From Candidatus Latescibacterota bacterium (GTDB lineage: Bacteria; Latescibacterota; UBA2968), in contig OZ242195.1 in assembly GCA_965205975.1 (NCBI GenBank), forward strand, positions 4,288,001 through 4,352,000: DNA of 64,000 nucleotides, in the 5' to 3' direction. Numbering within the stretch: position 1 is the first letter of the stretch; every line of letters begins with the position of its first letter. The position numbers and the translations under genes were made by a program. The notes below the pieces were generated by a model. That model did no database searches. It had not been told where the DNA came from and worked only from the letters and a program-made list of their open reading frames with translations. Below, piece after piece: positions 17,613 to 18,935 of the stretch.

Positions 17613-18203
17613 TCAAATCAATGTAATTTTATAGTGGTTAAGAGCCTGCCAGAAAGAGGGGCGTTGAGTTAATTGTGTGACTCTCCCCGTCTGATTCAAT
17701 TTATGGAACGCCCGGTCAAATATGGCGTAGCATTGCTCCCCTGTAAATCGTGAGCTATACAGAAATCCATCCACGTTTTTTTGAAGGGTATAAAAGGCTG
17801 TGGATAGTAAACGGCCTTCGTGGTGGTTCGAGTCGTGAACAACATCCGGGGGAGCACCAATCCTGACCGGTCCATCCTCCCGAAGGTCCACAAGATTCAA
17901 GTCTTGCTGAGATTGGAACAATACGACCCTTCTGGAAGTAATATCTGATCGTAGAATTTCGCGATGCTGGCGGCGTGTCAAGCTGTTACGCACCACATTT
18001 TCCCATAAGCAGCAAGATACCGTTGCGGCACCGTACAGCACGGCATAGTTTCCGTTTGGATCGCTGAACCGGCTCGGCGCGGGAACGGCACGAAGCGGGT
18101 TGACGATGTGGCGTTGGTGAATTAAACGGAACATCGGATTATTGATCGGGACCAAGGTATGCTGTGTTTGAATGAGGCTTCTAAGGTAGAAGTAGCCGGT
18201 CAT
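17613..18203 (-). CDS. RES-domain toxin (putative NAD+ phosphorylase/ADP-ribosyltransferase)
   Basis: FRL, SRFSDP, VLY-x-A, E in WENVVR, LVDL, DGFLYSSRFTG, AIFDR; TAATG coupling to the upstream gene. Confidence 0.88.
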   Translation of the reverse strand: MTGYFYLRSLIQTQHTLVPINNPMFRLIHQRHIVNPLRAVPAPSRFSDPNGNYAVLYGAATVSCCLWENVVRNSLTRRQHREILRSDITSRRVVLFQSQQDLNLVDLREDGPVRIGAPPDVVHDSNHHEGRLLSTAFYTLQKNVDGFLYSSRFTGEQCYAIFDRAFHKLNQTGRVTQLTQRPSFWQALNHYKITLI

Positions 18204-18853
18204 TACGCAAAGTCTCCCTGGAGATATCCTTCAGCAGCAGCCTCAACGCGGGCGATTTCTCCTCGGCGAAGCAGGGCAAGTGGTTCCTCTCCATCGAGCG
18301 CGTTGTTTGGCACTGTCAGCCAATACCACGTTGCATAGGTGTCGCCATCGAATAGATGGATGATACGATTAAATCCTCCGGGAGGTTGCCCGTGGAGGTC
18401 CCCTATAGCAGCAGCTTCAACGCGGGCGACTGCTCCGTTGTGAAGCAGGGTAAGTGGCTTCTCTCCATTGAGCGCGTTGTTTGGCACTATTAGCCAATAA
18501 CACATTGTATAGGCGTCGCCATCGAATAGATGGATGATACGATTAAAACCTTCAGGAGGTCGCTGGTGTTGGTATTCTTTTTTAGCAGCAGCCTCAACGC
18601 GGGCGACTTCTCCCCGGCGAAGAAGGGTAAGTGGTTCCTCTCTATTGAGCGCATCATTTGGCACTGTTAGCCAATACCACGTTGCATTGGCGTCGTCTTT
18701 AAATATCTGTTTAATACGGTCAAACTCATTGGGCGGTTGCCTGTGTTCATTAGATTGCTCAGCATCTACTGGCCTCTGAGTATATTTCTTGATCTTATCC
18801 TCCACCTGTCGCTCATTCAACAGCTTTTCGGAATCCTCAGGTCCTCTATCCAT
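18203..18853 (-). CDS. Antitoxin with three tandem MbcA/ParS/Xre C-terminal (DUF2384-like) domains
   Basis: Three 58-60 aa repeats of WL-x-x-PN-x-AL-x-x-x-x-P-x-x-LL-x-x-G-x-x-x-RV; ends GDFA. Confidence 0.85.
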   Translation of the reverse strand: MDRGPEDSEKLLNERQVEDKIKKYTQRPVDAEQSNEHRQPPNEFDRIKQIFKDDANATWYWLTVPNDALNREEPLTLLRRGEVARVEAAAKKEYQHQRPPEGFNRIIHLFDGDAYTMCYWLIVPNNALNGEKPLTLLHNGAVARVEAAAIGDLHGQPPGGFNRIIHLFDGDTYATWYWLTVPNNALDGEEPLALLRRGEIARVEAAAEGYLQGDFA

Positions 18854-18884
18854 TTTCGATCCTCCGGTGCTTGAGTGCGTATTT

Positions 18885-18935
18885 TCAGAACTTTCTGATA
18901 CAGAAAAAATATAGCCTCTTTCGGGTGTCTGTCAA
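18885..18935 (-). promoter_or_regulatory. TA operon promoter TTGACA-N16-TATATT with downstream palindrome TCAGAA-CT-TTCTGA
   Basis: -35 at 18930-18935, -10 at 18908-18913, palindrome at 18885-18898. Confidence 0.55.

Follow-up and report, generated by a model that had tools for sequence, protein, structure and literature searches.

The genome of a Candidatus Latescibacterota bacterium encodes a two-gene RES module whose antitoxin carries three tandem copies of the Xre/MbcA/ParS C-terminal domain (PF09722) and no HTH. In the reading we favor, with modest confidence, the last antitoxin copy likely plugs the predicted NAD+-consuming toxin, and the inner copies, which lack the tail, are probably tolerated duplicates that bind it weakly or not at all. 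The type of system, a type II RES toxin-antitoxin, is known; the novelty is an inherited, copy-variable domain triplication in an HTH-less antitoxin. Positions refer to the window, the whole stretch of 64,000 nt that was analyzed.

The antitoxin and toxin open reading frames, both on the minus strand, are coupled by a TAATG overlap, with the antitoxin upstream of the RES-domain gene in a two-gene operon as in the RES-Xre, MbcA and ParS type II systems (Table 1). The TTGACA position of the promoter-like site is common to 8 of 11 aligned loci from relatives. The terminator-like hairpin has a folding energy of -19.5 kcal/mol (z -4.3), equaled by 0 of 200 shuffles; a terminator pattern scan did not pick it up. 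An Rfam search gave no match. No RNA data set was listed as holding the sequence, a negative that does not bear on expression. A weak inverted repeat, TTTC-N7-GAAA, lies behind the promoter at about 18905-18891 (minus strand); HTH-bearing relatives carry TTCCC-N7-GGGAA at this place. It is possibly an operator remnant or a 5' hairpin, and we dropped the idea that it now acts as an operator.

Table 1. Features of the RES module in the window.
Feature	Position	Strand	Basis
Antitoxin gene, 216 aa: leader and three PF09722 domains	18203..18853	-	Pfam, profile envelopes, AF2 model
Leader, 39 aa	18737..18853	-	DNA alignment with HTH-bearing and HTH-less relatives
Repeat 1 (aa 40-98)	18560..18736	-	Core near family consensus; tail replaced by KKEYQHQR
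Repeat 2 (aa 99-156)	18386..18559	-	Most diverged core; GDLHGQ end, then directly repeat 3
Repeat 3 (aa 157-216)	18203..18385	-	Free GYLQGDFA C-terminus; likely neutralizing copy
RES-domain toxin gene, 196 aa, open frame	17613..18203	-	PF08808
Sigma-70-type promoter-like site, TTGACA-16-TATATT	18908..18935	-	11/12 consensus matches
GGAGG ribosome-binding site, 7 nt before the antitoxin ATG	18861..18865	-	Read from sequence
Intrinsic-terminator-like hairpin, then U run	17465..17502	-	Folding energy versus shuffles

Around the module, the gene at 13501-15945, which from its motifs we take to be a Lon-type protease gene, follows the module here and in two congeners with the single HTH form (L020:5503-6177 and L023:4577-6172), which suggests a common variable site. 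A 106-aa open reading frame at 16861-17181 (plus strand), without a match in a Pfam scan, sits below the toxin in a stretch of lower GC content (43% versus 51%) and ends in a 25-nt tandem duplication (17131-17180). Directly upstream of the module is a gene for a 974-aa ankyrin-repeat protein (19034-21958), in which a 292-nt unit is duplicated near the N-terminus and two ankyrin units are 96% identical, so duplication inside a gene is seen outside the antitoxin as well. An AAA-family protein of 525 aa (PF13401) is encoded on the opposite strand at 22309-23886, upstream of the ankyrin gene. Another RES toxin-antitoxin pair, a canonical one whose antitoxin has a long N-terminal region, lies 8 kb before the window (G000:C1:4279392-4279987; L029, L033). 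The genome has one toxin of the module's subfamily and one unrelated canonical RES pair.

The 216-aa protein has three stretches matching PF09722 (E 2.9e-17, 62.8 bits for the whole protein) and no match to an HTH family in Pfam at E<=1. Scored alone, the single repeats reach 24.0-24.4 bits against a cut-off of 24.5, and the whole protein falls below the cut-offs of the NCBIfam models NF049845 (50.9, cut-off 90) and TIGR02293 (36.2, cut-off 57). It lacks the N-terminal Xre-like HTH, dimerizing and operon-repressing, of the Xre-HTH subtype. A preliminary description made from the DNA had proposed this architecture of a leader and three repeats joined by TAATG to a RES gene, and the open reading frames and Pfam bear it out: the three matches uphold the assignment to the MbcA/ParS family, the proposed repeat boundaries coincide with the profile envelopes (40-98, 99-156 and 157-216), and reading the junctions and the terminus places the GDFA tail, as described, on repeat 3 only.

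At the DNA level, Tandem Repeats Finder reports a period of 174 with 2.6 copies, 82% matches and a score of 649. The copies are spaced 174 and 177 nt apart, and their cores are identical at 118, 124 and 133 of 153 nt (77-87%). Repeats 2 and 3 have an identical 33-nt tract in common, within the N-terminal half of repeat 3. The conserved core columns are changed at 2 of 22 in repeat 1, 4 of 22 in repeat 2 and 1 of 22 in repeat 3; for the conserved tail columns the counts are 6, 4 and 0 of 7. Linkers of 5-8 residues separate the repeats, and at both junctions half a tail runs into the domain-opening H-G-Q-P-P. GDFA followed by a stop is found in repeat 3 only, which alone has the free C-terminal G-x-[FY]-x tail, an ending present in 137 of the 149 top family hits. 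In the family-profile alignment GDFA aligns with GAFA of ParS, GVFS of VPA0769 and GVF of MbcA. According to excerpts of PMC6436930, MbcA without its last ten residues (104-113) fails to neutralize, and MbcA without the last two (112-113) associates weakly, yet could be co-expressed with active toxin. By this analogy repeat 3 is likely the neutralizing copy, acting through its free tail; full neutralization would be limited to it, and repeats 1 and 2 would bind weakly at most.

An AF2 model built on 57 alignment rows has a leader helix followed by three four-helix units (pLDDT 69, pTM 0.45) that show no confident mutual packing; the leader helix, at residues 6-26, is of low confidence. A run with two alignment rows gave pLDDT 40 and was discarded. 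Among 48,161 chains the four best structural matches were ParS, the Pseudomonas putida Xre, VPA0769 and MbcA, with middling Z scores of 4.7-6.1. A Foldseek search of the PDB and BFVD gave no match at E<=0.001.

The three-copy antitoxin gene is genuine and not an assembly error. The read evidence comes from short-read contigs rather than raw reads, and sample S2 may be the source sample of the assembly. In two S2 runs the repeat-2 unit has the depth of its flanks (196.6 versus 204.2 and 194.5; 148.1 versus 150.6 and 148.4) and the 33-nt tract common to repeats 2 and 3 has double depth (393.3 and 300), as three copies predict. A third S2 run gave 180 for the unit versus 196 and 178. The repeat 2/3 junction is also covered, with no differences, by a 151-nt record of a separate study, and in near-identical contigs no joints indicating collapse to one copy were seen. 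The triplication as first described agrees with both the S2 depths and the junction-spanning record. In run X1 of sample S1 the repeat-2 unit (18344-18544) has a depth of 42.8 with flanks at 27.9 and 25.7, about 1.6-fold compared with 1.0 in S2; this could be a four-copy allele or local noise, depth being no copy number. That the array is an artifact, or the module dead, is hardly credible: the best-covered runs are perhaps from the assembly's own source sample and many loci in relatives are broken, but the copies differ at 13-23% of sites, the contig depths fit three copies, the junction is spanned in another study, a four-copy relative (P0002, below) derives from another source, and the toxin frame is open with its motif residues kept and dN below dS.

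The partner protein is a RES-domain protein (PF08808, E 4.2e-15, 56.5 bits, cut-off 23.2). Residues R26, R45, Y57, E68 and S151 are invariant in all eight homologs. An alignment to 26 canonical RES proteins, though of a probability of only 0.2%, places the first four in register with their R, GGR, Y and E. Judging from motif likeness, the five may correspond to R27, R47, Y58, E69 and S126 of MbcT. A sequence search of the PDB with the toxin found no match at E<=10. Compared with five congeners, the toxin has a dN/dS of 0.49-0.58 (Fisher p 0.002 for the one pair tested). It is the most diverged of the six, with dN of 0.23-0.25 versus 0.05-0.16 among the other five and dS of 0.43-0.47. The invariant residues, with dN below dS, suggest that the toxin is probably functional, and NAD+ consumption is predicted for it from the RES family.

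The module itself looks mobile and often decaying. In relatives the toxin is full length at 5 of 12 genome loci, fragmented at three and absent from four, a count that leaves out a thirteenth, short metagenome locus which showed no toxin. Frameshifted or deleted toxins and orphan antitoxins occur at L007, L009, L013, L004, L011, L012 and L015/L016, and one antitoxin among these is split by a transposase-like open reading frame. The flanks of the module differ between most genomes. Three genomes (G006, G008 and G015) each carry two copies of it.

With repeat 3 as query, 10 of 61 related genomes gave a match, as did 9 of 21 within the genus; this genome is counted in both. Each of the 12 loci in relatives is either single-domain or broken, and none is multi-copy. 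Two forms occur. One is 147 aa long with weak winged-HTH and PF23125 matches before the PF09722 domain; the other, of about 100 aa, is HTH-less, the winged-HTH and middle region being deleted in frame. Among 37 short hits, the HTH-less single-domain form accounts for 15 clusters, with lengths of 100-102 aa. The 39-aa leader of the window antitoxin appears to be the remnant of the ancestral N-terminus after the same kind of in-frame deletion, and because it is of this deleted type, the distribution of forms implies that the HTH was lost before the duplication. In two congeners (G012 and G019) HTH-less single copies adjoin full-length toxins, so one copy appears sufficient. The absence of an HTH, on which the preliminary description laid weight, thus stands as an observation, but it is not special to the window gene, being common to its single-domain relatives.

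Among 129 collected proteins, 128 have the domain and only two have more than one copy of it: the window antitoxin and P0002, a JGI protein of 272 aa from a contig of 4377 nt. P0002 has four PF09722 copies and is 71-74% identical to the window antitoxin. In both proteins the repeat-1 linker ends in Y-Q-x-Q-R and repeat 2 keeps the motif YTMCYW and closes with GDLHGQ. In a tree of 51 columns their repeat 2 copies fall together with 99/88 support. Such position-specific linkers, with the grouping of repeat 2, indicate that the array arose once and then varied in number. Repeats 1, 3 and 4 of P0002 are mutually identical at 46-50 of 51 residues, and repeats 3 and 4 are nearly identical, suggesting a recent extra duplication. 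The near-identical repeats of P0002 and the 33-nt tract of the window gene point to gene conversion within the gene. On the sequences compared, the array is inherited, variable in copy number and partly homogenized. Among 168 genomes of the phylum, 61 with matches, no other tandem PF09722 arrays were found; adjacent in-frame copies occur in this genome only. One PF09722 match in the phylum was flagged with in-frame neighbors, and it was set aside because its terminus is a CPC-type motif, not an antitoxin tail. We also considered that repeat 2 might be a chimera derived from an HTH-type copy, and gave this up since its motif is equally reachable from repeat 3.

We compared substitutions between the copies. 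The dN/dS is 0.87 for repeat 2 versus repeat 3 and 0.51 for repeat 1 versus repeat 3; between single-domain relatives it ranges from 0.15 to 0.81. Repeat 1 gives 0.22 against two HTH-less singles and 0.55 against a third. Private changes, synonymous and replacement, number 7 and 11 in repeat 1, 4 and 7 in repeat 2, and 2 and 3 in repeat 3. For repeats 1 and 2 together, 11 of 29 are synonymous (p 0.09 at a neutral share of 0.25 and 0.35 at 0.33). These tests, of low power with 51 codons, detected no departure from neutrality. As repeat 3 needs the upstream frame, the open frame is no evidence of selection on the inner copies. Repeat 1 matches the consensus at 40 of 50 positions and repeat 3 at 38 of 50; between the window antitoxin and P0002, repeat 2 is identical at 39 of 50 positions and the terminal copies at 39 of 51. 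The closeness of repeat 1 to the consensus and the conservation of repeat 2 speak in favor of constraint, and conversion blurs both.

To see how unusual the layout is, a 20-sequence domain profile was run against 1.84 billion representatives, and the best 150 of 10,840 hits were inspected. Eight of these 150 had more than one stretch. Two were dropped: P0151 has plant kinase repeats and P0235 an HTH and one domain. The others are the window antitoxin and P0130, P0131, P0133, P0150 and P0256; ranking by summed score favors multi-copy proteins, so 6 of 150 is no frequency. These five have two or three copies, P0131 giving three stretches in one search and two in others. None of the five has an HTH match at E<=0.05, and in all of them the last copy ends in a G-x-[FY/P]-x tail. 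Within a protein the copies are 26-70% alike, in four of the five only 26-50%, and the alignment of the last copy to repeat 3 is partial. The cluster of P0256 has eight members. The five are unrelated proteins, and the layout is rare but recurrent among the best 150 of 10,840 hits.

Metagenome scans for the gene context of P0002 and the five tandem proteins returned nothing or one short contig. Viral sequence scans with P0131, P0256, P0130 and the domain alignment were empty, as was a phage tblastn with P0131. The plasmid matches inspected for P0256 (6 of 6) and P0130 (30 of the 224 listed) span the length of one domain only. In one viral cluster of the ESM Atlas PF09722 is found on 53% of members, which, if real, would be phage-borne stand-alone antitoxins. 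As the preliminary description supposed, we found no described RES system of this architecture in titles and abstract openings, nor any multi-copy MbcA/ParS antitoxin there; supplements of toxin-antitoxin surveys may list such architectures. Five structurally characterized RES-Xre systems are named in excerpts of PMC12457610.

The history we propose for a tolerated array would begin with a winged-HTH antitoxin that lost its HTH. One in-frame duplication would then have placed H-G-Q-P-P directly behind the G-Y-L at which the last helix closes, cutting off Q-G-D-F-A; the junction codons, the tail start and then H-G-Q-P-P, are consistent with one duplication breakpoint that was later copied. Unequal crossing-over and gene conversion would have altered the copy number, to three here and four in P0002, and partly homogenized the copies. 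The array would survive as sequence upstream of an intact last copy costs little, with the frame having to stay open for that copy. Lacking an HTH, the antitoxin would leave the operon probably without autorepression. Against tolerated duplication, the array is old enough to be common to P0002 at 71-74% identity, repeat 1 resembles the single-domain relatives as closely as repeat 3 does, and YTMCYW was kept in both lineages (39/50) despite homogenization elsewhere. The five unrelated tandem proteins, four with copies only 26-50% alike, also suggest that the layout can persist for long.

The main rival reading, plausible though less likely, is that the antitoxin is multivalent. Its inner copies would dock onto a second protomer of the toxin, at the surface that receives the antitoxin, or would keep surplus toxin bound, providing avidity or buffering; this would offset the lost HTH autoregulation, or partly block one active site and so tune basal toxin activity. 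RES toxins do form dimers or 2:2 units (excerpts of PMC12204516 and PMC6436930), and tail-trimmed MbcA still associates weakly and permitted co-expression of active toxin (PMC6436930, excerpts). In the inner cores 18-20 of 22 conserved columns are retained, and their predicted fold is like that of repeat 3. The five other tandem proteins likewise have no HTH match and a tail on the last copy. However, single HTH-less copies are far commoner and are paired with intact toxins, short linkers of 5-8 residues would constrain the reach to a second protomer, the inner copies carry no significant selection signal, and gene conversion alone can account for their conserved cores. Taken further, tandem HTH-less MbcA/ParS antitoxins may be a recurrent undescribed class in which valency replaces DNA binding, comprising the window lineage with 3-4 copies and at least five unrelated proteins with 2-3. 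The capped domain would plug the NAD+ site, the uncapped ones would grip further protomers without full silencing, and a recombining repeat number would tune the toxin leak. We advance this tentatively and regard it as rather unlikely.

An improbable use of the inner copies is as a reservoir of cassettes, either conversion donors with which the antitoxin tracks a fast-changing toxin or partial cover against related incoming toxins. The 33-nt tract does lie in the N-terminal half of the neutralizing copy, the window toxin is the most diverged of the six, G006, G008 and G015 have two modules each, and single chains with several immunity domains in tandem have been described, the polyimmunity proteins (excerpts of PMC3482391). 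But conversion happens in any tandem array, useful or not, the inner copies are without the free tail needed for full neutralization, a single toxin of the subfamily is present in the genome beside the unrelated canonical pair, and with toxin dS also raised (0.43-0.47) the toxin may simply be more distant. Still less probable is a role in phage defense, a sensor or decoy function that the preliminary description suggested and for which we have an analogy only. The inner copies would be bound or cleaved by a phage protein or protease, freeing the toxin and causing abortive infection by NAD+ loss. The nearest neighbors in the ESM Atlas are mainly viral clusters of stand-alone proteins of 91-97 aa (score 0.78-0.80), which we take as a lead only. 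No family of the PADLOC 2023 defense models matches either protein at E<=0.01, the domain-alignment scan of viral sequences gave no locus, and the neighbors are an ankyrin protein and lon, not a defense island. In excerpts of PMC11535050, wild type and knockout of NatRT showed no difference across more than 50 phages, and a cut upstream of repeat 3 would leave the neutralizing copy intact.

The preliminary description also considered the tail-less copies as stand-ins for the non-neutralizing subunits of oligomeric RES-Xre complexes. This finds no support. In P. putida the second Xre of the 4:2 complex completes the DNA-binding HTH dimer, and neutralization persists in the 2:2 complex (excerpts of PMC12204516), so an HTH-less chain has no DNA-binding subunit role to replace. 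In the window lineage, moreover, loss of the HTH appears to have preceded the duplication, and its ancestor was of the winged-HTH/PF23125 type rather than the Xre-HTH type, and single HTH-less copies adjoin full-length toxins in G012 and G019. Since RES antitoxins neutralize with their last residues, only a single domain in each chain can do the known job, and the uncapped extra domains are a natural test of a separate role for the domain body, be it avidity, toxin stabilization or tuning. The forms make up a comparison series: an HTH with one domain, then HTH-less proteins with one, with three and with four domains, homologous toxins being at hand for all but the four-domain form. Should the extra copies be idle, this is a tidy but ordinary case of a tolerated in-gene duplication.

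Like MbcT-MbcA of Mycobacterium tuberculosis (PDB 6FKG; PMC6436930, excerpts), the window module pairs a RES toxin with an antitoxin ending in PF09722, whose C-terminus in MbcA blocks the cleft. MbcA matches the family profile (E 2e-4) with the tails aligned and has a fold Z of 4.7, but it has one domain and forms 1:1 units, whereas the window antitoxin has three domains, two without a free tail. The fold of a single repeat is matched best by ParS of the Sphingobium ParS-ParT system (PDB 6D0H), with a Z of 6.1 and an rmsd of 2.2 over 59 residues; the profile E is 1.7e-10 and the tail GAFA compared with GDFA. ParS is also single-domain. Its toxin ParT ADP-ribosylates Prs (excerpts of PMC7758455). 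The same C-terminal domain is found in the 4:2 Xre-RES complexes of P. putida (6GW6), Vibrio parahaemolyticus VPA0769-0770 (8GUG) and Pseudomonas aeruginosa NatRT (Z 6.0 and 5.8; E 8e-10 and 3e-14). There too antitoxin domains outnumber toxins in the complex, but the extra antitoxin is a separate chain that completes the HTH dimer for operator binding (PMC12204516, excerpts). The single-domain relatives in the same genus, the 147-aa HTH form and the HTH-less form of about 100 aa, are alike in promoter, leader, domain, tail and RES partner, with 64-68% identity, and differ in having one domain only. Polyimmunity proteins of polymorphic toxin systems also carry several toxin-neutralizing domains per chain, though they usually lie apart from toxin genes and belong to other families (PMC3482391, excerpts). 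In the window antitoxin neutralization likely needs a free C-terminus, which is available to one copy only, and the tail-less inner copies argue against each domain neutralizing independently as in polyimmunity proteins.
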